DNA of 64,000 bases from Candidatus Levyibacteriota bacterium (GTDB lineage Bacteria > Patescibacteriota > Microgenomatia > Levybacterales > UBA12049). Each line of letters starts with the position of its first letter. Position 1 is the stretch's first letter. This document shows positions 12,458-48,357 of the stretch, piece after piece. The stretch covers positions 445,803 through 509,802 of the forward strand of contig JAJDCG010000001.1 of the NCBI GenBank assembly GCA_029260965.1. The letters run 5' to 3'. The notes under the pieces were generated by a model. It did no database searches, had not been told where the DNA came from, and saw nothing but the letters and a program-made list of their open reading frames with translations. The position numbers were made by a program, and so were the translations under genes.

Positions 12458-13660
12458 ATGAAGATATTAATCGTGTCGTCTTTTTTGCCATATCCACTTC
12501 ACTCTGGGGGGCATGTCAGGCTTTACAACCTAATCAAGGAATTGTCAAATAGGCATGAGATAACCCTTTTTTGTGAAAAAAGACCAAACCAGACAGTAGA
12601 GGAAATAAAGGCAGTTGAGAAGATTTGCAGGAAAGTCATAACTGTTGATAGGCGCAGACAGTGGTCACTGGAGAATATTCTCAAGAGTGCAATCTCAGTT
12701 CACTCATTTCTCATCAATGGACACACGCATCAGAAAATGAAGTATCTCTTAAAAAGAGAGTTGGAGAACGTAAAATACGATTTGATTCATATTGAAACAT
12801 TTTATGTTATGCAAAATCTTTCTCATACAAATATACCCAAAATTCTTGTAGAGCATAATATAGAATATAAAGTTTATAAGAAATTTTTATCCAGAGCACC
12901 ACATATTTTTAGACCACTTTTGGTGCTGGATGTTGTAAAAATCAAAAGAGAGGAGGAGAGGTTCTGGAAAAAAGCAGATAGACTGGTTGTGGTTTCAGAA
13001 GCTGATAGGAGGGTGATAAGAACTGCTGGATTTGATGCTGATATTGTTGCCAATGGAGTAGATATTGAGAAATTTGCATATAAGCAAAAAGCAATAAATG
13101 ATAAGCAAAAAGAAAGAAAAATTCTTTTTATTGGGGATTTTAAGTGGATACAAAACAGGGATTCTGTAAAATTTATAATTGAAGAGATCTGGCCATTGAT
13201 AAAGCAAAAAATAAAAAGTAATGAGCAAAAAGTAAATTTGTGGATTGTTGCTAGAGAAATTCCCCAATCAGTGAGAAAACTATCTGAAGACAATGATGTT
13301 ATTTTTGATGAAAAAAGCTCAGGATTGTCAACTGAGAAGATATTTCAAGCTGCTGATGTTTTACTTGCTCCAATAAGAGTTGGAGGTGGGACTAGTTACA
13401 AAATTTTAGAAAGTATGAGTTGTGGAACACCAGTTGTAACTACAAAAATGAGCGCAAACAGTCTGGGTGCAAAAGATAATGAAGACATTATGGCATCTGA
13501 TGAACCAATTGATTTGGCAACAAAAACCATAAATCTTTTGGAAGATGAAAAACTTTATGAAAAAATAAGTAAAAAGGGACGGAAGTTAGTAGAGGAAAAA
13601 TATACCTGGAAAGAGATTGCAAAAAAATTGAATGGGGTTTATGAAAGCGTTAGAAAATAG
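12458..13660 (+). CDS. GT4 glycosyltransferase
   Basis: MKILIVSSFLPYPLHSGGHVRLYNL and GGTSYKILESMSCGTPVVTT. Start moved to the Met after the track's short extension. Confidence 0.75.
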   Translation: MKILIVSSFLPYPLHSGGHVRLYNLIKELSNRHEITLFCEKRPNQTVEEIKAVEKICRKVITVDRRRQWSLENILKSAISVHSFLINGHTHQKMKYLLKRELENVKYDLIHIETFYVMQNLSHTNIPKILVEHNIEYKVYKKFLSRAPHIFRPLLVLDVVKIKREEERFWKKADRLVVVSEADRRVIRTAGFDADIVANGVDIEKFAYKQKAINDKQKERKILFIGDFKWIQNRDSVKFIIEEIWPLIKQKIKSNEQKVNLWIVAREIPQSVRKLSEDNDVIFDEKSSGLSTEKIFQAADVLLAPIRVGGGTSYKILESMSCGTPVVTTKMSANSLGAKDNEDIMASDEPIDLATKTINLLEDEKLYEKISKKGRKLVEEKYTWKEIAKKLNGVYESVRK

Positions 13661-36587: not shown

Positions 36588-37127
36588 ATGAAGTTGTTGA
36601 TTGTTGCAGGGGGTGGGGGGCATTTTGCCCCAGCACTCTCCGTTATAGAAAAGCTCCCCAAAGATTGGGATTTGCTTCTTGTTGGGCGCAAGTACTCGTT
36701 GGAGGGGGATGCAGCACTGTCCCTAGAGTACCAGACTGCTGAGCGGATGCATATACCTTTTCGCATGCTTACAACTGGTAGGATACAACGGAAGCTTACA
36801 CGTCATAGTTTACTTTCTCTTCTCAAGACTCCCATTGGTATGGTTCAGGCCTTGAGCATATTGAGAGATTTCAAACCCGACGTCGTTTTGTCATTTGGAG
36901 GATATGTTGCAGTACCATTGGTTCTTGCTGCGCATTTTTTGAGAATTCCTATCATTATTCATGAGCAGACATTTGGTGCAGGACTTGCCAATAAAATTTC
37001 CAGCCGTTTCGCTGACAAAGTTTGTATATCTTGGGAGGAGTCTCGTAAATATTTTCCTAACGGGAAAGTTGTGGTAACAGGAAATCCTGTTCGAAAATTT
37101 CAAATTTCAAATTTCAAATTTCAGTAG
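36588..37127 (+). CDS. murG: murG N-terminal segment; frame ends inside an (AAATTTC)x4 repeat
   Basis: MKLLIVAGGGGHFAPALSV (G-loop 1), IIIHEQTFGAGLANK, VVTGNPVRKFQISNFKFQ*. The same gene continues in another frame. Confidence 0.8.
   Translation: MKLLIVAGGGGHFAPALSVIEKLPKDWDLLLVGRKYSLEGDAALSLEYQTAERMHIPFRMLTTGRIQRKLTRHSLLSLLKTPIGMVQALSILRDFKPDVVLSFGGYVAVPLVLAAHFLRIPIIIHEQTFGAGLANKISSRFADKVCISWEESRKYFPNGKVVVTGNPVRKFQISNFKFQ
37095..37122. repeat. heptanucleotide tandem repeat (AAATTTC)x4 at the murG frameshift
   Basis: Read directly: tcga + 4 x aaatttc + ag + tag. Confidence 0.9.
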
Positions 37128-37129
37128 AC

Positions 37130-37690
37130 CTGCCACTTCTTTATGTAACAGGGGGGAGTGCCGGGGCGCATGGAGTTAATGTTCTTATCGAGGGGTGTCT
37201 AGAAGTGCTCCTTAAAAATTACAATATTATTCACCAGACAGGTGATGCACAAGAGTTTAAAGATTTTGATCGACTTAAAAACCTGAAAAACACATTGCCG
37301 AAAGATTTGCAAGAAAGGTATTTTTTAACAAAATTTGTAGACCCACAGGATATTTCAGGAATTTTGGAAAAAGCGGATCTTGTGATAAGTCGTTCGGGGA
37401 TAAATACGGTAACTGAAATCCTTTATTTTGGAAAACCATGCATTTTGATACCACTTCCTCATAGTCAGGCTCAAGAGCAAGAGATAAATGCTAGATTTGT
37501 TCAGGATCAAGGTCTTGGATTGGTGGCAGATCAGGGTAGCTTAAATCCAGAAAAATTAACAGCCATTATCCAGACGGTTTCAGGAAATCTTGATAAGTAT
37601 AAGAAAGCTGCAAAAAAGACGAAAAGTTTAATCAAAGAGGATGCATCTGATAGGATTATAAGTGTTGTTAAAAAATGCGTGAAAAAATAA
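37130..37690 (+). CDS. murG: murG C-terminal segment (frame +2 relative to the N-terminal segment); the frame is open from 37130 and the track lists it from 37205
   Basis: The frame upstream of the track ORF reads VDLPLLYVTGGSAGAHGVNVLIEGCLEVLLK..., i.e. the conserved second G-loop GGSxGA of the MurG C-domain. Confidence 0.75.
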   Translation: MPLLYVTGGSAGAHGVNVLIEGCLEVLLKNYNIIHQTGDAQEFKDFDRLKNLKNTLPKDLQERYFLTKFVDPQDISGILEKADLVISRSGINTVTEILYFGKPCILIPLPHSQAQEQEINARFVQDQGLGLVADQGSLNPEKLTAIIQTVSGNLDKYKKAAKKTKSLIKEDASDRIISVVKKCVKK

Positions 37691-39491: not shown

Positions 39492-40670
39492 ATGTTAATT
39501 CGTCCTCAATCAACAAATTCTGCCAAAATAAGAGTTGTCGGTATTGGCGGTGGGGGTACCAATGCGATTAATTCTATGATTGCCAATAGTTCCATAAGTG
39601 GTGTTGATTTCGTCGCTATCAACACAGACTCCCAAGCACTTCTTTTGAACAAAGCCGATTCCAAAATCCAAATAGGTGAGAATATTACCAAGGGTCTCGG
39701 ATCAGGAGGAGATCCAGAGATGGGAAGACAAGCAGCTGAAGAATCAGCAGAAAAAATAAAGAATATGCTTGAGGGATCAGACATGGTTTTTCTCACAGCA
39801 GGTATGGGTGGAGGAACAGGGACAGGAGCAACATCTGTTGTCGCCAGCATTGCAAAGGAAATAGGAGCACTGACAGTAGTTGTTGTAACCAAGCCGTTTC
39901 TTTTTGAAGGGACTCGTCGCATGGTTACAGCAGAAGAAGGTCTGGAGAGTCTTAAGGACAAAGCAGACACACTCATAGTTATTCCTAACCAGAGAATATT
40001 AGATGTGGTGGACCGTAAGCTCTCGCTTCTGGATGCATTCAAAGTGGCTGATAGCGTACTTACACAGGGAGTTCAGGGAATATCAGAAATAATTACACAA
40101 CCAGGACTTATAAATGTTGATTTTGCTGACGTACGCACGATTATGTCTGATGCTGGATCATCATTGATGGGGATTGGGTCTGGAATTGGTGAGAACAGAG
40201 CAGAATCAGCAGCGCGTGCAGCTATTTCAAGTCCGCTACTTGAGCTTTCTATGGATGGAGCTCGTGGGGTTCTTTTCAACATAGTCGGTGGTGAGGATCT
40301 AACCATGACAGAGGTTGATGAGGCAGCAAAGATTATTTCCAATGCAGCAGATCCAGATGCAAATATTATATTTGGTGCAACTATTGACGAGACCATGCAT
40401 GACCAGATCCGCATCACGGTGGTGGCAACTGGATTTGACCAGAACAAACAGCGACTGCAACAGTTCATGGTAGAACAGCCTGATCCACAGGTAGTCAGAA
40501 ATCAACAGGGAGCAAATCAAAACCAGAACCCATCCCAACAGGCAGTAGGTGAAAATGGGTCATCTGAGGATCAGGATTCTGGTAATAATGGAGATCCAGT
40601 AGTTACTAAAAAAGAAGAAAGCACAGAAGACGATTGGGACATCCCCGCATTCCTGAGGCAAAGGAATTAG
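39492..40670 (+). CDS. ftsZ: cell division GTPase FtsZ
   Basis: [28 protein letters not shown]; C-terminal tail [10 protein letters not shown]. Confidence 0.95.
40641..40670. repeat. left copy (ftsZ 3' end) of an imperfect 30-bp direct repeat; partner at 44283..44312
   Basis: atccccgcattcctgaggcaaaggaattag versus atccccgcatttctaagacagagaaattga: 23/30 identical. Both encode IPAFLRQRN*. Confidence 0.85.
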
Positions 40671-41647
40671 CTTAGTTCTTCAATCAGGCTTTTGTGCCCC
40701 AAGCTTATCCAATATTCTGTTTCTTTAGTATCGTTCCTGTTTATATACTTTTCTTGGTAACCTCCGAGGAGCTCCATTGCAACACCAGCTACTGTGTAAT
40801 CGTATAGCCATTTTCGTTCCTGTGGAGTTAATTTATTAAATTTATCATACTCATTTGCTATTAGCTCTATGCGGCTTCTCAGTGTCATTACGCTATTGTC
40901 ATCATGCATGAGATTTGCTGCTATTACTGCAATTTCTTGAATTCGTGGATACCAGTTAGCTACAGAAAAATCTAAAATATAAATATCTCCTTTTTTGCTC
41001 TTCAAGACATTCGCTTTTGTAAAATCTCCATGGACAAATGCATGTGGTAAATCGTCAGCGGGGATTGACTTATATCTTTTTATTGTTTGTTCTACGAGAG
41101 GTATGTCTTCTGGTTTTAAGTATTGTTTTGTTTTATCAAACAGTATTTGAATATTTGGGATTGCCCAACTATCGAAAATATATGTTGGTTTGTAGTCAAT
41201 TTTATTCACTTTTGCAGCTTGTTCAATAATTGATTTTCTTTCTTCATTATTTGGGGGACGATTTAGCTCAAAAAAAGTATTCCCATCTATATAATCCATT
41301 AATATAAGATTTAATCCGTTTGCTTGTTTGTCCGAATAAACAATACCACCATCGTGTTTTTGGAGGAGAGATGGGTGATTAACTCCAGAGGCGATTGCCC
41401 GTTCCATGATGGTGGTGTATCGATCTATATCCTCTGGAGTTCTGTCTTTCTGAAAGATTTTTGCTAGGTATTTATCTTTCCCTACATATATTATGACATT
41501 GCAGTCTTCATATCCAACTTCAATAACAGAAAAATCATCAGGTATTCCTATCGTATACGCTTTACTAAGTCTGTTGATAACTGGTTTGAGGTCTCCTGAA
41601 TAATTAAGTCTATTTATAGGCGTTCTTTTATTAATTTTTCCTGTCAT
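40667..41647 (-). CDS. phosphotransferase (APH/choline-kinase-like) family kinase
   Basis: YLAKIF (beta3 Lys), [12 protein letters not shown] (Brenner HGDxxxxN catalytic loop), [10 protein letters not shown] (metal-binding D). Confidence 0.7.
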
Positions 41648-44282
41648 AGTGTAATTATATCAAGATATACTTAAATTATCTAACGGGAAGACATTTGTTA
41701 TAATTAATCCGATGAAGAATAACATTTTATATATCCTAACAGGGAGGTCGTCTACTGGGAAATGATGCTACTCACCCAGACCCGAGTGATGAAGGCGTAT
41801 CAATGGAGGAGGCAAGGGACGTAATACAATTTTTAGATTATTTAACTGAATATCTTTTTGACCTTCCCAAAAGGATTACTGATTATAGAAACCGATCGGA
41901 AAGAGAATAAAAATATCTCATAATAAATTAGCTAGCCTTGAGAGAATTTTAATCTATATAATTTAGCCTCAAATATATGTCGTACTAGCTCCATTATGCG
42001 ACATAAATTAGGAATGCGAATAAATACTTTGTTTACAATATTACTTCTGAAAAGAGACAGCAATGATGATATAATTTGCTAAATGTCCATACAGAAACAA
42101 GTAAAAATAAATAATGCTAGCGTAGAGCAAGCTGGCTTATCAAGAGATTTTTCAGCAGACATAGCGGAATTCATTTGGAATGGATTCGATGCAGGAGCAA
42201 GTGAGGTAAGAATTGCTTATATAATAAATGAAATTAAAGGGGTAGAATCTTTATCTATTGAAGATAACGGAGAGGGAATTGATTACTCTACAATAGAGAA
42301 AACGTTTGGAATTTTATTAGACTCAAGTAAGAGTTCTCTTGCGGGATCATCATCATACGTTCACGGCAAAAGAGGAATTGGGCGTTTTTCTTTTAAGTAT
42401 TTTGCTCACATTGCAGAATGGATTAGTGTTTTCAAAAAGGATAATAAAAAATATCGTTTTTCTATTAAAATCTCAGCAGACAATAAAGAAAAGTATTCTA
42501 TATCAGATGATCTGGAAGATGTTAAAGATGTTGACATTTCTACCGGATGCAGGGTGAACTTTTCAGTTCTTAACGATTCTTCCGTTAATGAGTTAGTCAC
42601 CCCTTCATTCATTGAATCATTGAGGAGAGAATTCGGTTGGTATCTTCATCTGAATAAAGAACGAGGGTTTAAGCTGTTTATAAATGATAAGGTTTTGGAC
42701 TATGAATCAAGCATTATAGATAGTGACGAAAAGAAGGTAAAAATATCTCATGGTAAAGAATCCTATATCTTTGGCTTAAATTATATTGAATGGAAGAAGA
42801 ATACAGGAGATGATTATTATTATAATTATTTTCTAGACACAAACTATATAGAAAAAGGCAAAAAAACAACCTCGTTCAATAAAAATGGGATTAATTTTCA
42901 TCATAGCGTTTATATAGTTAGTAGTTTTTTTGAAAATTACAGTCCATCATCAAACAAGCAGGAAAATAAAAGTAGTTTGTTTGAAGACGATTTTATTTTT
43001 AAGGAGCTTAATAAGGAGCTGCACCTTTTCTTACAAGAAAAACAAAAGAAATTTATAAATAGAAATGCGGAAATTTTAATACAGGAGCTTGAACAGGAAA
43101 AAGTTTTCCCTGAATTTGAAAATAATGAATTAGGAGAAGACAGAAAAAGAGAATTTGTTAACTTAACAAAATCACTTTATCGTTTAGAGCCAAAGTTATT
43201 TATAAAGGTGAGCCCCTTACAAAAAAGATCGTTTCTTTCTTTTCTAAAACTTTCGATTGACTCAAATGAAAGAGAAAATGTAGTAAAAATTATTGAATCT
43301 ATTGTTGATATGACAGCAGAAGAAAGGGCAGAGCTTGCAAAAATATTGCAAGTTACAACTTTAAGCAATATAGTTTATGTTATGAAAGATATTGTAGGTA
43401 GAATAAAAAATGTAGAAATACTTAAAAGCCTAGTTAATGATTTTGAAAAGTATACTAACGAAAGAGATAATATTCAAAAAATAATGGAGAAATGTTTCTG
43501 GTTATTTGGAGAACAATATACTGTTGTTTCATCAGACAAGAGTTTTACCTCGGCTTTGCAGAAATATTACATAGACATATTGAATGAAGATTTATCTCAT
43601 GAATTAAAATTATCTCTAGATCATAAGGATAGTAAAAAAAGACCAGACCTATTCCTTTGCAGGCAATATCCCCTCACCCAGACGCCTACACGCCTTTCTG
43701 AAGACAATATAATTATAGAATTAAAAAGACCAAGTGTAGATATAGGCATTACTCAAATGAGGCAATTAGAGGATTATATGGATTTTATAGTTAAGAGTTC
43801 AAATTTTAGTGGCACAATTCGCAACTGGAAATTTTATATTGTTGGTAAAAATTTAACAGGTGAGGTACAAGCTCGTGTTGATGAGAATAAAAATAAAGGA
43901 GAAGAGCAATTTCTTTATCTAAGAATAAAGAATTTTGCTATATATGCATTGAATTGGGATGATTTATTCCAGTCATTTAAGTTAAAAGCTGGATTTATCC
44001 TTAGCAAACTAGATATAAAAACAGAAGTGATAATTGATGAATTAAAAAAGGAGAATATATCGCCGGCAGGCATGCCTGATTATTTGACAAAAATAGTATC
44101 TAATGAGAAATCTGTTTCTTCTCCTCCCGCAAATCCTATGTAATTAGTGTTCGGATAGTTTAGTATTGACTTAGATGTTTTTCTCTGTTAAATTCTACTT
44201 GTACTTTGATGACATAGAAAGGCTATTTATTCAAAGGTGCTTTTTGGAAAACCTGAAGCGAGACATGGGGTTTGTCTATAAA
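40671..44282. mobile_element. putative integrated accessory segment (about 3.6 kb) between the two ftsZ-3'-end repeats; carries the APH-like kinase and the GHKL-nuclease gene; no integrase present
   Basis: Flanking imperfect direct repeat of the 3' end of a protein-coding gene. Accessory-type cargo. Removing the segment gives a convergent ftsZ -> <- HK arrangement. Confidence 0.4.
42083..44143 (+). CDS. 686-aa fusion protein: N-terminal GHKL (Bergerat-fold, MORC/MutL-like) ATPase, helical middle region, C-terminal PD-(D/E)xK nuclease-like domain
   Basis: ADIAEFIWNGFDAGASEVRI (motif I, ExxxNxxDA), IEDNGEGIDYSTIEKTFG (motif II, DNGxG), HGKRGIGRFS (motif III, GxxGxG). C-terminus: KKRPDLFLCRQ...NIIIELKRPSV...QMRQLEDY (D...ExK...Q). 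Confidence 0.65.
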   Translation: MSIQKQVKINNASVEQAGLSRDFSADIAEFIWNGFDAGASEVRIAYIINEIKGVESLSIEDNGEGIDYSTIEKTFGILLDSSKSSLAGSSSYVHGKRGIGRFSFKYFAHIAEWISVFKKDNKKYRFSIKISADNKEKYSISDDLEDVKDVDISTGCRVNFSVLNDSSVNELVTPSFIESLRREFGWYLHLNKERGFKLFINDKVLDYESSIIDSDEKKVKISHGKESYIFGLNYIEWKKNTGDDYYYNYFLDTNYIEKGKKTTSFNKNGINFHHSVYIVSSFFENYSPSSNKQENKSSLFEDDFIFKELNKELHLFLQEKQKKFINRNAEILIQELEQEKVFPEFENNELGEDRKREFVNLTKSLYRLEPKLFIKVSPLQKRSFLSFLKLSIDSNERENVVKIIESIVDMTAEERAELAKILQVTTLSNIVYVMKDIVGRIKNVEILKSLVNDFEKYTNERDNIQKIMEKCFWLFGEQYTVVSSDKSFTSALQKYYIDILNEDLSHELKLSLDHKDSKKRPDLFLCRQYPLTQTPTRLSEDNIIIELKRPSVDIGITQMRQLEDYMDFIVKSSNFSGTIRNWKFYIVGKNLTGEVQARVDENKNKGEEQFLYLRIKNFAIYALNWDDLFQSFKLKAGFILSKLDIKTEVIIDELKKENISPAGMPDYLTKIVSNEKSVSSPPANPM

Positions 44283-44312
44283 ATCCCCGCATTTCTAAGA
44301 CAGAGAAATTGA
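44265..44312 (+). CDS. 15-codon mini-[18 protein letters not shown] whose last 9 codons and stop copy the FtsZ C-terminal tail; probably the displaced original ftsZ 3' end
   Basis: Read directly. Could be a non-expressed att-like remnant. Confidence 0.25.
   Translation: MGFVYKIPAFLRQRN
44283..44312. repeat. right copy of the imperfect 30-bp ftsZ-3'-end direct repeat
   Basis: See 40641..40670. Confidence 0.85.
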
Positions 44313-44315
44313 GCT

Positions 44316-45443
44316 TTACTTCCCCCGGGGTTTTTTGGTGATAGGGAGTTCTATTGTGAATGTCGATCCTGCTCCTTCACGGCTTTGGATTTTTATATTT
44401 CCACGATGTGCCTTTATTATTTGTGACGTGATATAGAGCCCGACACCCAGGCCTTTGTGTCCGTTGGCATTTCCACGTTCAAATCTTTCAAAAATCCGTT
44501 CCTTTTCATCTGTAGGTATACCTATTCCCTGATCAATAACTGTAATATACGCATTTGATCTACGTTTTTCAGTTCTTATTTCAATGGGTTTCCCCTCGCC
44601 ATATTTGATTGCGTTTGCGAGCAGGTTGCTTATAGCTTGTTCAATTCTTAGTTTGTCCCAGTAGCCATTGATTGGTCCCTTGATATCCAATTTTATTTTA
44701 TATCCATCATGTTTGATTTTTTCACTAAATCTATCTGCTACATCTTTGGTTAGTTTCGCAATGTCAATTTCTTCCTTTTCCAGGCTCAGCTTGCCTGTTG
44801 TGATGAGAGAGACGTTGAGAAGATCGCTTATCATACGTGAGAGACGAAGCGATTGTTGCTCAGTGCTTTCAAGCATTTTCATCAGCTTGGCAACGGAGAA
44901 ATTGGCAAGTGAGACACTTTTTATATTATGTAGCGCAGTCTGGAGCTGGAGGAGCATAGCTGAGAGCGGTGTTTTGAGTTCATGGGAAGCGATAGATAGG
45001 AATTCATCTCTGGCCTGGATTTCTTTTTTGTCTTTTATTTTTTCAGCCTGAAGCTTCTCGATTAGTGCTAGATTTTCCTTCTCTCTTTTTTTGAATGCAG
45101 CGGATTCATTCGTATTTGCTAGTTTGTCGATTAAGAGGCAGGTAATGTAACCAGCAATTATAAAAATTACAGTCCGTACCAAAAATACCGCGAAGCTGGA
45201 AGAAGAGTTATTTGGGAAAAAGAAAAAGTAGTATGAGCCAAGCGTGATGAGTATTATGCTAAAGATTCCAGCGCGTATTCCCCTTAGATAAGCAGCAATC
45301 ACTATTGCCAGGAAGTTGAAAGCAAAAAAATTATCTCCAGTAATTGGTAAAAAAGCCCATGTAAGACCAATTGAAGCAATACCTATGAATGTTGCAACTC
45401 CATAAGTATTGAAAAAATTACGTACGTTTTCTTTACTTATCAT
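44316..45443 (-). CDS. sensor histidine kinase (membrane-anchored, HisKA + HATPase_c); no response regulator nearby
   Basis: ASHELKTPLSAM (H-box), LLANAIKYGEG (N-box), DQGIGIP (G1), GLGVGLYI (G2); N-terminal TM bundle. Start set at MISKEN so that it does not overlap ileS. Confidence 0.8.
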   Translation of the reverse strand: MISKENVRNFFNTYGVATFIGIASIGLTWAFLPITGDNFFAFNFLAIVIAAYLRGIRAGIFSIILITLGSYYFFFFPNNSSSSFAVFLVRTVIFIIAGYITCLLIDKLANTNESAAFKKREKENLALIEKLQAEKIKDKKEIQARDEFLSIASHELKTPLSAMLLQLQTALHNIKSVSLANFSVAKLMKMLESTEQQSLRLSRMISDLLNVSLITTGKLSLEKEEIDIAKLTKDVADRFSEKIKHDGYKIKLDIKGPINGYWDKLRIEQAISNLLANAIKYGEGKPIEIRTEKRRSNAYITVIDQGIGIPTDEKERIFERFERGNANGHKGLGVGLYITSQIIKAHRGNIKIQSREGAGSTFTIELPITKKPRGK

Positions 45444-45534
45444 ACGTTTATTGATATCCACAATATAGCACAAATACCCTAAAAGTCCAGTAGTGAGCTT
45501 GAATAAATTGGGAATTTGAACTAGAATTAAGCAT

Positions 45535-48357
45535 ATGTTCAAGCCGGTAAAAAGCGCTGTTAACTTTCCAGAGCAGGAGGAAAAACTGATAAAATTTTGG
45601 AAAAAAAATAAGATTTTTGAAAAATCAGTTGAAAAAGATGCGCCAAATGGTTCGTGGACTTTTCTGGACGGACCGCCTTTTGTAACAGGTATGCCTCATT
45701 ATGGATCGCTTTTATCCAGTCTTCCAAAAGATTTATTTGGTAGGTATTTTACCATGAAGGGATATAGTGTCAGGCGTGTTTGGGGATGGGATGGACACGG
45801 ACTTCCAATTGAAAACAAAGTTGAGCAGGAACTTGAAATTCAAAGTAAAAAAGATATCGAAGAAGTGGTAAGTGTTAAGAAGTTTATTGATGAGTGCAAG
45901 CATTATGTAAATATGGTTTCAAGTGACTGGGAATGGTATGTGGATAGGATTGGCAGATGGGTAGATTTCAAAAATGCATATAAAACTTGGGACAGAGATT
46001 ATATGGAGTCTGTGATGTGGGTTTTTAAACAAATGTATGACAAGGGATTTGTGTACAAGGGGCTTCGGGTTTCACTTTATTGTCCTCATTGCGTAACGCC
46101 AATTTCTAATTTTGAAGTTGCGATGGATTCAGATAATTACAAAGATGCACTTGATCCATCTACAATTTACAAATATGAGCTGGAAGGCGAAAAAGATACT
46201 TACATCCTTGCATGGTCAACAACTCCCTGGAATAAAATAGCAACACCAGCTCTTGCTGTTAATCCCAAAATGAAGTACGTGAAAGTTAAGCAGGGAAAGG
46301 AATTTTATGTTTTGGCTGAGACGACACAAAAAGCGCTTGATGGGGAATCTGAAATCGTTGGGAGATTAACAGGTAAAGATCTAGTTGGTAAAAAATTTGT
46401 TCCGCATTATGATTATTACAAAAATCGTGCAAAAGGAAAAGTATTTGAAATATTGGGAGGAGATTTTGTGACTGCTGAGGAGGGAACAGGTGTTGTGACA
46501 ATTGCTGCTTATGGTGAAGAAGATATGAAGCTGATGAAAGAAGAAGGGGTTCACACTGAGCTTCATCTTGATGAGGAAGGACATGTTAAAGAAGACGTGC
46601 CTATTTTTGGCGGAATGTATTATCTCAAAGCCAACAAGGCAGTTGATGAAGATCTTGAAAAGCGTGGTCTTATTTATAAAAAAGTTGATTATACTCACCG
46701 GGTTCCTCTTTGTTGGAGATGTCACACTAGGCTTTACTATGCGCCAATTGATGCATGGTTTGTAAATGTTCAGGATCTCAAGCCTCTGATGAAAAAAACA
46801 AACTCTGATATTGGTTGGTACCCAAAGCATTTTAAAAATGGAAGATTTTTAAAAAGTTTGGAAAATGCGCCTGATTGGAATATTTCTCGCAATAGATACT
46901 GGGGTTCTCCTGTTCCTGTTTGGGAATGTGAGTGCGGGGAGAGATTTGTTCCTGGATCCATAAAAGAACTCGAGGATGCATCAGGCAGAAAAGTGACCGA
47001 GCTTCACAAGCCTGATATTGATGAGGTAATGGTTAAGTGTAAGAAGTGTGGTAAGGATGCAAAGCGAGTAAGTGAGGTTTTGGATAGTTGGATTGAGGCA
47101 GGATCTGCTTCTTTTGCAGAGCGACATTTTCCGTTTAAAAAGGATGAAAAACTAGATGATTTTTTTCCTCCTGATTTTATTGCTGAATATACGGGTCAGA
47201 TCAGAGCTTGGTTTTATGTACTTCATGTGATTGGCGCTGCGATTTATAAATCTCCTTCATTTAAAAATGTTTTGGTCGAGGGTGTGATACTTGGAACAGA
47301 TGGCAGAAAAATGAGTAAGAATTTTAAAAATTATCCAGATCCTCGAGAAATGCTTGATAAGTACGGCGGAGATGCGTTGAGGTTCTATCTGCTTGGTTCA
47401 CCCGTGATGAAGGGTGAGGATATCTTGATTTCAGAGGATGCGTACAAATCCCAAATAAGAGGAACCATGCTTATTCTTTGGAATACATATAATTTTTTTG
47501 TAACTTATGCCAATTTGGACGCTTGGCATCAGGCAAAAAACATCAAGCAAAAAGAAATAAGTAAAAACATTTTGGATATTTGGGTTTTAGCGTTGCTAAA
47601 TAATTTAATTTCTGATGTGACAAAAAGCTTAGATAATTATGATACAGTAACGGCAATTGAATCGATAAAAAAATTCGTTGATGATTTTTCAACTTGGTAT
47701 GTTAGAAGAAGTAGGAACAGGGTTGGGCCAAGCGCAACTGATCAAGATGATAAAGATGCATTTTATTCTACCTCTTTTGAGGCATTAACTACTCTTTGTA
47801 AATTGCTTGCGCCAATTGCGCCTTTTATATCTGATTCAATTTATAAAAATTTGACAGAGGAAGAATCAGTGCATTTAGCTGATTGGCCTTTGTCAAACTC
47901 AAAACTTACAACACAAAACTCAAAACTGATTAATGATATGAAAATGGTTAGAAAAATTGTTGAGATGGGATTGTCCGTTAGAAAAGATGCAGGTATAAGA
48001 GTAAAACAACCACTCTCAAGCCTTACTGTTTTGGGTACAGATGAATCTATACTAGATGAAGCTTTGCATTTTCTTATAAAAGATGAGGTTAATGTAAAAG
48101 ATGTAAAATTTGAAAAAGCAAAAGAGTTAAAAGTTGATCTAGATACAAAAATAACACCAATTCTTGAAGCAGAAGGAAAAGCGCGTGATATTATCAGAAT
48201 GATTCAGGAAGAGAGGAAAATGCTTAGTACTGCACTTGATGAAAAGGTGGATGTATTTTTGCCTGAATGGCCCGTTATGTGTGAAGAAGAAATAAAAAGA
48301 AAAGCGCTTATAAATGAATTGTTAAATGGAGACTTTAAAGTCAAAAGATTGTCATGA
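45535..48357 (+). CDS. ileS: isoleucine--tRNA ligase (type 2-like)
   Basis: PPFVTGMPHYGS (HIGH-region variant), GWDGHGLPIE, DWNISRNRYWGSPVPVW, RKMSKNFKN (KMSKS). 940 aa. Confidence 0.8.
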   Translation: MFKPVKSAVNFPEQEEKLIKFWKKNKIFEKSVEKDAPNGSWTFLDGPPFVTGMPHYGSLLSSLPKDLFGRYFTMKGYSVRRVWGWDGHGLPIENKVEQELEIQSKKDIEEVVSVKKFIDECKHYVNMVSSDWEWYVDRIGRWVDFKNAYKTWDRDYMESVMWVFKQMYDKGFVYKGLRVSLYCPHCVTPISNFEVAMDSDNYKDALDPSTIYKYELEGEKDTYILAWSTTPWNKIATPALAVNPKMKYVKVKQGKEFYVLAETTQKALDGESEIVGRLTGKDLVGKKFVPHYDYYKNRAKGKVFEILGGDFVTAEEGTGVVTIAAYGEEDMKLMKEEGVHTELHLDEEGHVKEDVPIFGGMYYLKANKAVDEDLEKRGLIYKKVDYTHRVPLCWRCHTRLYYAPIDAWFVNVQDLKPLMKKTNSDIGWYPKHFKNGRFLKSLENAPDWNISRNRYWGSPVPVWECECGERFVPGSIKELEDASGRKVTELHKPDIDEVMVKCKKCGKDAKRVSEVLDSWIEAGSASFAERHFPFKKDEKLDDFFPPDFIAEYTGQIRAWFYVLHVIGAAIYKSPSFKNVLVEGVILGTDGRKMSKNFKNYPDPREMLDKYGGDALRFYLLGSPVMKGEDILISEDAYKSQIRGTMLILWNTYNFFVTYANLDAWHQAKNIKQKEISKNILDIWVLALLNNLISDVTKSLDNYDTVTAIESIKKFVDDFSTWYVRRSRNRVGPSATDQDDKDAFYSTSFEALTTLCKLLAPIAPFISDSIYKNLTEEESVHLADWPLSNSKLTTQNSKLINDMKMVRKIVEMGLSVRKDAGIRVKQPLSSLTVLGTDESILDEALHFLIKDEVNVKDVKFEKAKELKVDLDTKITPILEAEGKARDIIRMIQEERKMLSTALDEKVDVFLPEWPVMCEEEIKRKALINELLNGDFKVKRLS

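Follow-up and report, generated by a model that had tools for sequence, protein, structure and literature searches.

What does a gene that joins a GHKL-type ATPase to a nuclease in one polypeptide do in a Patescibacteria bacterium, and how did it come to lie where it does? The question is raised by a gene at 42083..44143 of a 64,000-nucleotide stretch of DNA from a Candidatus Levyibacteriota bacterium (contig JAJDCG010000001.1, positions 445,803 to 509,802 of the forward strand), which in its whole length we call the window. An initial annotation, made from the sequence without database searches, had described the product as a standalone fusion of the two enzymes. We find that the gene is intact and that it entered the 3′ end of ftsZ as cargo of a cassette. 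Its product is probably (we would put this at roughly 65%, by analogy) a standalone, single-protein DNA nuclease directed against phages or plasmids, of the kind described as paraMORC3 or Shedu type I-D, for which VcSduA of Vibrio cholerae is the validated example.

An intact gene for a four-part protein

The gene and the domains of its product are as follows.

42083..44143, plus strand: complete GHKL-ATPase/PD-(D/E)xK-nuclease gene (open reading frame with ATG start, 686 amino acids)
42140..42577, plus strand: GHKL (Bergerat-fold) ATPase domain, residues ~20-165 (Pfam HATPase_c_3, profile matches in the PDB, invariant columns)
42578..42958, plus strand: GHKL-associated middle (transducer-like) domain, residues ~166-292, beta-rich (model secondary structure, Foldseek, hhalign)
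42980..43492, plus strand: helical region, residues ~300-470, its last helix carrying invariant R440 and E460 (model secondary structure, conservation)
43496..44017, plus strand: PD-(D/E)xK nuclease core, residues ~472-645 (W473-x-F-G, D522, E546-x-K548, Q561, Y565)

The gene is real and intact, and identical copies of the 686-residue protein are found in one NCBI assembly (on a 549-kb contig) and one independent Logan assembly. Every motif string quoted in the initial annotation is present in the translation, those of the ATPase being IAEFIWNGFDAGASEV (residues 27-42), IEDNGEGID (59-67) and GKRGIGRFS (95-103), and those of the nuclease RPDLFL (520-525), NIIIELKRP (542-550) and QMRQLEDY (558-565). 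Secondary structure was taken from a full-length AlphaFold model of the protein (predicted local distance difference test score, pLDDT, 80). The protein thus joins a GHKL ATPase to a PD-(D/E)xK nuclease with its catalytic residues intact, and the combination of ATPase, middle domain, helical region and nuclease in one polypeptide is conserved over ~1,000 clusters of relatives. Scanning with PADLOC returned no defense match, and scanning with NCBIfam returned no family assignment, the Topo VI-B and MutL models scoring far below threshold. No Rfam family matched in the region, where scans for promoters and terminators performed at chance level.

The assignment of the N-terminal domain to the GHKL superfamily, as the initial annotation had it, is borne out by profile searches. 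Pfam HATPase_c_3 matches residues 27-139 with E=1.5e-15 and 57.9 bits (cutoff 25), and a profile built from 37 relatives and searched against the PDB matched the N-domains of Mlh1, PMS1, MutL, Topo VI-B and PMS2. All four Bergerat motifs that define the superfamily are found: motif I (E29xxxN33), motif II (D61xGxG65), motif III (G95xxG98xG100R101) and motif IV, which is G155-C156. Conservation was read from an alignment of 71 relatives that covers both branches of the family, in which no sequence departs from N33, D61, G63, G65, G98, G100 or R101, and at least 90% have E29. Identification as a MutL mismatch-repair protein was considered and rejected, since the TIGR00585 model, whose cutoff is 180 bits, yields 17.5 and matches only residues 29-72, and the C-terminus is of the PD-(D/E)xK type.

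The region between ATPase and nuclease had been described as a helical linker of ~350 residues, a description that has to be revised. Only residues ~300-470 are helical, and residues ~166-292 form a beta-rich domain of the sort that follows the ATPase in other GHKL proteins, as judged from the structural model, from Foldseek, which aligned 380-467 columns to the N and middle domains of Hsp90 and TRAP1 (E~1e-11), and from an hhalign match to the VcSduA family that extends through residue 292, the end of the domain. The search for a transducer-like domain that had been recommended at the outset was therefore rewarded. This middle domain carries an invariant W237 and a conserved TSFN...HSxYxxSxxF block.

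The C-terminal nuclease, also part of the first description, is likewise upheld. W473, F524, K548, P550, Q561 and Y565 are invariant in the alignment, and D522 and E546 are conserved in at least 90% of sequences. The upstream acidic residue shared by the whole family is E460, which is invariant and begins a helix; conservation of E477 is confined to the branch comprising Bacteroidota, Firmicutes and the Candidate Phyla Radiation (CPR). Pfam HSDR_N_2, a member of the PD-(D/E)xK clan, matches the protein itself weakly (E=0.043) and 53 of the 71 relatives, at best with E=1.5e-6. Among defense models, those for SduA recur most often across the family: PDLC00401 matches 32 of the 71 (best E=2.9e-5), and five further SduA models match between one and eight members each. 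These PADLOC matches are weak and cover the last ~60 residues of the helical region together with the WLFG motif. Neither the protein nor any of the 71 relatives matches Pfam DUF4263 (PF14082) at E<=10. In the PDB, whether the query was the full-length protein, the family profile or either of two C-terminal profiles, the sequence matches were confined to GHKL N-domains, and no Shedu chain was among them.

A large family of standalone genes

With sequences clustered at 50% identity, an exhaustive profile search recovered 1,003 cluster representatives at E<=1e-30, with lengths mostly of 650-690 residues; word-indexed searches had found 125 and 244 relatives. Members occur in Bacteroidota (Elizabethkingia, Tenacibaculum, Sphingobacterium), in Clostridia (C. 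difficile, Terrisporobacter), in many Proteobacteria (Vibrio, Aeromonas, Pseudomonas, Shewanella, Acinetobacter) and in the CPR (Magasanikbacteria, Amesbacteria). In databases they go by no more specific name than "ATP-binding protein" or, in a few cases, "DNA mismatch repair protein". No V. cholerae protein came back from a homolog search that started from the Vibrio relative.

Seven genomic neighborhoods were examined, that of the window included. The Vibrio vulnificus relative adjoins SIR2-HerA with an integrase close by, the Elizabethkingia relative lies within an integrase-bearing element that also has a SocA/Panacea gene, and the Terrisporobacter relative is found directly 3′ of smpB with an IS91-like gene in the vicinity. 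A relative with 51% identity (P0005) lies near an ABC-ATPase and DUF4276 pair, a helix-turn-helix protein and a resolvase, and one with 42% identity (P0006) adjoins an SNF2 helicase, a PHP-AAA_21 protein and a phosphatase. The remaining neighborhood is that of P0117, a truncated form of 456 residues with no nuclease gene adjoining. Across the seven there is no recurrent partner gene and no recurrent kinase. The relatives are standalone genes in defense islands and mobile elements rather than in housekeeping contexts. The initial annotation had named three findings that would overturn it, namely an N-domain falling outside GHKL, D/ExK residues that vary among homologs, and homologs in conserved housekeeping contexts; none of the three was observed.

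Not all members are full length. P0107-P0119, from Sphingobacterium and others, have 412-456 residues, comprising the GHKL domain, the middle domain and part of the helical region but no nuclease, and might be either degraded copies or a nuclease-less variant. For one of these short members (L007 6001-7371), the next gene encodes a TetR regulator, not a nuclease.

A cassette at the 3′ end of ftsZ

The origin of the gene in this genome can be read from its surroundings, for which three further features are needed.

40641..40670, plus strand: 3′ end of the live ftsZ gene, left copy of a direct repeat (attL-like core; repeat detection, alignment)
40667..41647, minus strand: APH/homoserine-kinase-like phosphotransferase gene, 326 amino acids (Pfam APH, E=5.6e-14)
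44203..44312, plus strand: relic consisting of a conserved arm of ~80 nt (TTGAAGACTTAAAAA…GGGGAT…) and an orphan FtsZ tail (attR-like right boundary)

At 44283-44312, 3.6 kb 3′ of the end of the live ftsZ gene, lies an orphan in-frame sequence encoding IPAFLRQRN and a stop codon (IPAFLRQRN*). It is part of a direct repeat of 28 nt (40641-40668 and 44283-44310) both copies of which encode this same peptide end; 23 of the 28 nucleotides are identical, and all five differences are synonymous. The repeat encloses exactly the APH-like kinase gene and the GHKL-nuclease gene, which together make up a cassette of 3.6 kb. As expected of an integrative element, direct repeats of the target core flank the insert and the 3′ end of ftsZ is restored. 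The repeat pair thus reads as the attL and attR of an element that targets the 3′ end of ftsZ, integrating there and restoring the gene. A tblastn search of the 64-kb window found no integrase; the cassette that carries the kinase and nuclease genes thus lacks one and occupies an att site within the last codons of ftsZ. G+C content around the nuclease gene falls to 0.30, the minimum of the neighborhood, against ~0.37. The suggestion in the initial annotation that the segment was horizontally acquired is confirmed by the ftsZ-tail repeats, by relics at the same site in related bacteria (described below) and by the absence of both genes from those relatives; the dip in G+C is real as well.

The same annotation had drawn attention to the divergently transcribed kinase. 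The gene is indeed there and was inserted together with the nuclease gene, but it is co-inserted cargo and not a recurrent partner of the nuclease. Its other matches are below threshold, namely the NCBIfam model for type II homoserine kinase (E=3e-14) and the PADLOC PD-T4-6 kinase models (E=6.8e-5). CapK/CapS (PMC13373217) was considered for this gene and rejected, CapK being an anti-sigma-factor-type kinase and not APH-like. The kinase gene and the ftsZ stop codon, on opposite strands, overlap by 4 nt.

Immediately after the relic is a histidine-kinase gene (44316-45542, minus strand), which overlaps the start of ileS by 8 nt and has no adjacent response regulator. In the metagenome contigs L097 (7350-8027) and L099 (2570-3247), the same place is taken by a distantly homologous gene with 28% identity. 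Because this homolog follows the relic in those contigs too, the histidine kinase is placed outside the repeat-bracketed cassette.

The ftsZ tail as an attachment site in related bacteria

Related Patescibacteria have the gene order ftsA-ftsZ-ileS-rodA, with a gap between ftsZ and ileS that ranges from 32 bp to 6.8 kb, and in none of these genomes is either the kinase or the nuclease present. Relics encoding IPAFLRQRN* are found in this gap. Two stand in tandem in a Gottesmanbacteria genome (L016, 12475-12514 and 14610-14649), one is inverted in the closest relative (L009, ~12842-12871, minus strand), and further examples occur in 21 metagenome contigs (L092-L112), which were found with a looser pattern, the strict one having returned 0 among metagenome and viral contigs. 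All the relics encode exactly this peptide, with synonymous codons that vary, and the frame upstream of it is dead, spanning 0-22 codons. They lie 3′ of ftsZ and before ileS wherever the contig extends far enough, and they have in common the upstream arm of ~80 nt, which is absent at live ftsZ ends.

One family of tyrosine recombinases is encoded directly downstream of ftsZ in five loci.

L097: 1019-2101, minus strand
L110: 5750-6772, plus strand
L015: 11294-12316
L101: 111-731
L112: 62-589

The two complete copies match Pfam Phage_integrase with E=1.7e-30 and 6e-32. The L110 locus also carries a rolling-circle replication initiator of the Phage_CRI type found in filamentous phages, and the cargo at L111 includes an Mrr-type (Mrr_cat) endonuclease and a DUF5615 protein. 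The site at the ftsZ tail looks like a recurrent hot spot that accretes cassettes, inside an essential cell-division gene, and we found no description of this site in the literature consulted. The use of the ftsZ 3′ end in Microgenomates-type bacteria as a recurrent attachment site, both for integrase-bearing elements and for integrase-less cassettes, is the more unexpected by-product of this analysis.

Upstream in the window, murG is split into two frames (36588-37127 and 37205-37690). An independent assembly of this locus (L006) has seven extra bases (AAATTTC) near ~37090 and a single murG of 369 amino acids, and the split could be either an assembly error or a real frameshift caused by a change in the number of 7-nt repeats.

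Function and competing explanations

An anti-phage or anti-plasmid role is supported by the domains and their catalytic residues, by the N-terminal homology to VcSduA, by the defense and mobile contexts of relatives, and by the mobile origin of the gene in the window. VcSduA, which combines a GHKL domain with DUF4263, shields E. coli from T1-like phages, and its protection was seen at every multiplicity of infection tested; it works alone in that host, and the substitutions E27A in the ATPase and K557A in the nuclease each abolish defense (Adams et al., Nat Microbiol 2025, PMC12137116). The homology was measured by profile-profile alignment with hhalign, which gave a probability of 99.3% and E=8e-21 over 264 columns (window protein residues 7-292, VcSduA residues 3-304).

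Several observations weigh against this assignment. Identity to VcSduA is just 14% over those 264 columns, and the IWNG signature, near-invariant in the window family, occurs in 0 of 543 published VcSduA homologs, compared, like VcSduA itself, over their first ~400 residues as given in a bioRxiv supplement. Given this divergence, the trigger and the mode of action may differ from those of VcSduA. Moreover, position 156 in motif IV is Cys here and Thr in at least 90% of relatives; the host is a CPR bacterium without known phages; and a defensive role for the lineage in the window rests on analogy. The unusual cysteine (codon at 42548-42550) also occurs in the two closest full-length relatives, P0002 and P0005, which suggests that it is a tolerated trait of this lineage.

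The alternatives each seem improbable to us. One is that the ATPase-nuclease belongs to a restriction-modification (R-M)-like or DNA-repair system whose partners, a methyltransferase and an SF2 helicase, are encoded elsewhere. Such a role has been proposed for most MORC and paraMORC proteins, paraMORCs lying mostly within R-M operons, and for the standalone paraMORC3 proteins unlinked R-M partners or a function in repair were left open (PMC2292703). The SNF2/ResIII helicase beside P0006 and the "DNA mismatch repair protein" label on some relatives also point in this direction. Nevertheless, the cassette has neither a methylase nor a helicase, no partner recurs in the seven neighborhoods, the NCBIfam MutL model scores 17.5 bits where 180 are needed, and VcSduA suffices alone in E. 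coli.

It is also unlikely, although some features would fit, that the gene is a selfish addiction or toxin module stabilizing the cassette, or else a decaying and non-functional remnant. The cassette is without an integrase, whether by loss or from the start, motif IV carries Cys in place of the usual Thr, and truncated members without a nuclease exist, P0117 having no nuclease gene beside it. However, the reading frame runs its full length, no catalytic residue is lost, Cys156 is common to the two closest full-length relatives, and no small antitoxin-like reading frame is evident between 41647 and 44316.

Most doubtful is a two-gene system made up of kinase and GHKL-nuclease, with the APH-like kinase either controlling the nuclease or modifying the nuclease's target. 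The two genes are the sole cargo of the 3.6-kb cassette and diverge from a shared 436-bp spacer, and the kinase weakly matches the PADLOC PD-T4-6 kinase models (best E=6.8e-5). Even so, no kinase stands beside the six other family members examined, among them the nearest relatives (51% and 42% identity), and the best matches of the kinase in the cassette are generic APH and homoserine-kinase models, all under NCBIfam cutoffs.

If the protein is an anti-phage or anti-plasmid nuclease, its mode of action might be as follows. MutL, Hsp90 and the type II topoisomerases share general GHKL mechanics, and we draw on these here. By analogy with VcSduA, Shedu and GHKL enzymes at large, the GHKL domains of two subunits would pair on binding ATP to give a dimer, whose middle domains could engage DNA as a clamp or cavity. 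The C-terminal nuclease would be gated by the binding and hydrolysis of ATP and otherwise held inactive, and once released it may cut invading DNA directly, so that the host would not be killed. In Shedu biochemistry, the N-terminal domain is reported to restrain the nuclease. Shedu assembles as a tetramer or octamer, the tetramer through its nuclease domain; modeling of VcSduA, which came out better as a dimer, gave two entwined subunits whose middle domain resembles a clamp (PMC12137116).

Testing one member of the family would show whether the ATP-gated mechanism proposed for VcSduA spans the divide of 14% identity and whether it reaches bacteria of the CPR, whose immune repertoires have been little explored. 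The practical consequence is that a family of ~1,000 clusters labeled "ATP-binding protein" or, wrongly, "DNA mismatch repair protein" can be assigned to the GHKL-nuclease defense class, and that the models used by current defense finders miss this lineage.

Comparison with known systems

The initial annotation held that the protein matches no named defense system. This claim of a new architecture is wrong, because single-protein GHKL-nucleases had already been described in 2008, 2023 and 2025. The first description is that of paraMORC3 (Iyer, Abhiman & Aravind, PMC2292703), defined by a GHKL domain, an S5 domain and a C-terminal nuclease of the restriction-endonuclease (RE) fold with E-D-ExK motifs; nuclease-bearing members are standalone, have no conserved neighbors, and occur mainly in Proteobacteria and Bacteroidetes with a sporadic distribution that hints at lateral transfer. 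The window family resembles this picture both in its domains (an ATPase whose GHKL motifs are intact, then a middle domain that aligns with those of Hsp90/TRAP1 and VcSduA and may correspond to S5, and at the C-terminus an RE-fold nuclease with E-D-ExK) and in being standalone, sporadic and found mainly in those taxa. This comparison was made with the published description, and the paraMORC3 of 2008 may correspond to the lineage in the window, to that of VcSduA, or to both. The second description is Shedu type 1D (I-D), which comprises DUF4263 nucleases with enzymatic N-terminal domains and includes HATPase_c_3 followed by an Hsp90/MORC-like middle domain named N24 (Gu et al., 10.1101/2023.08.10.552793).

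Other systems share only parts of this arrangement. MutL, MORC, Hsp90 and Topo VI-B have a Bergerat ATPase followed by a middle or transducer domain and provide the best matches in sequence and fold to the N-terminal half, but they lack a PD-(D/E)xK nuclease, and the gene in the window is mobile rather than housekeeping. For the nuclease domains of FokI, NucS and BspD6I the likeness is at the level of fold only (9-15% identity), with unrelated partner domains and biology. Canonical Shedu SduA proteins (B. cereus, 8TI8 and 8TI9; E. coli, 8PS4) have different N-terminal domains with sPC4/Whirly-like or NRF folds; their DUF4263 is unmatched by the window family, and their solved chains have no sequence-level match to it. 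Membership of Shedu by way of DUF4263 is thus unproven.

The closest counterpart is VcSduA (AWB73059.1, from the WASA lineage of V. cholerae), which likewise has ~670-690 residues with the same four parts in the same order in one polypeptide and is encoded by a standalone gene in a genomic island. Its essential E27 and K557 correspond to E29 and K548 of the window protein, with a spacing of 530 versus 519 residues. The two differ in motif I, which is AExIWNGFDA in the window family and P(L/V)FEAVVNSI in VcSduA, and in DUF4263, which is reported for VcSduA and is not reached by the window family in Pfam. By an indirect test, moreover, the published VcSduA profile (a MacSyFinder model with 543 hits) appears not to detect the window family. 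Tentatively, and at somewhat less than even odds, the AExIWNGFDA proteins might constitute a separate family of ~1,000 clusters that is missed by Pfam DUF4263, by PADLOC 2023 and by the VcSduA model, that may have another trigger or action, and that is spread in Patescibacteria by undescribed elements integrating into the last nine codons of ftsZ. Judged from sequence comparison, the window protein most likely represents a distinct, distant and large lineage that shares with VcSduA its architecture and its N-terminal two-domain module.

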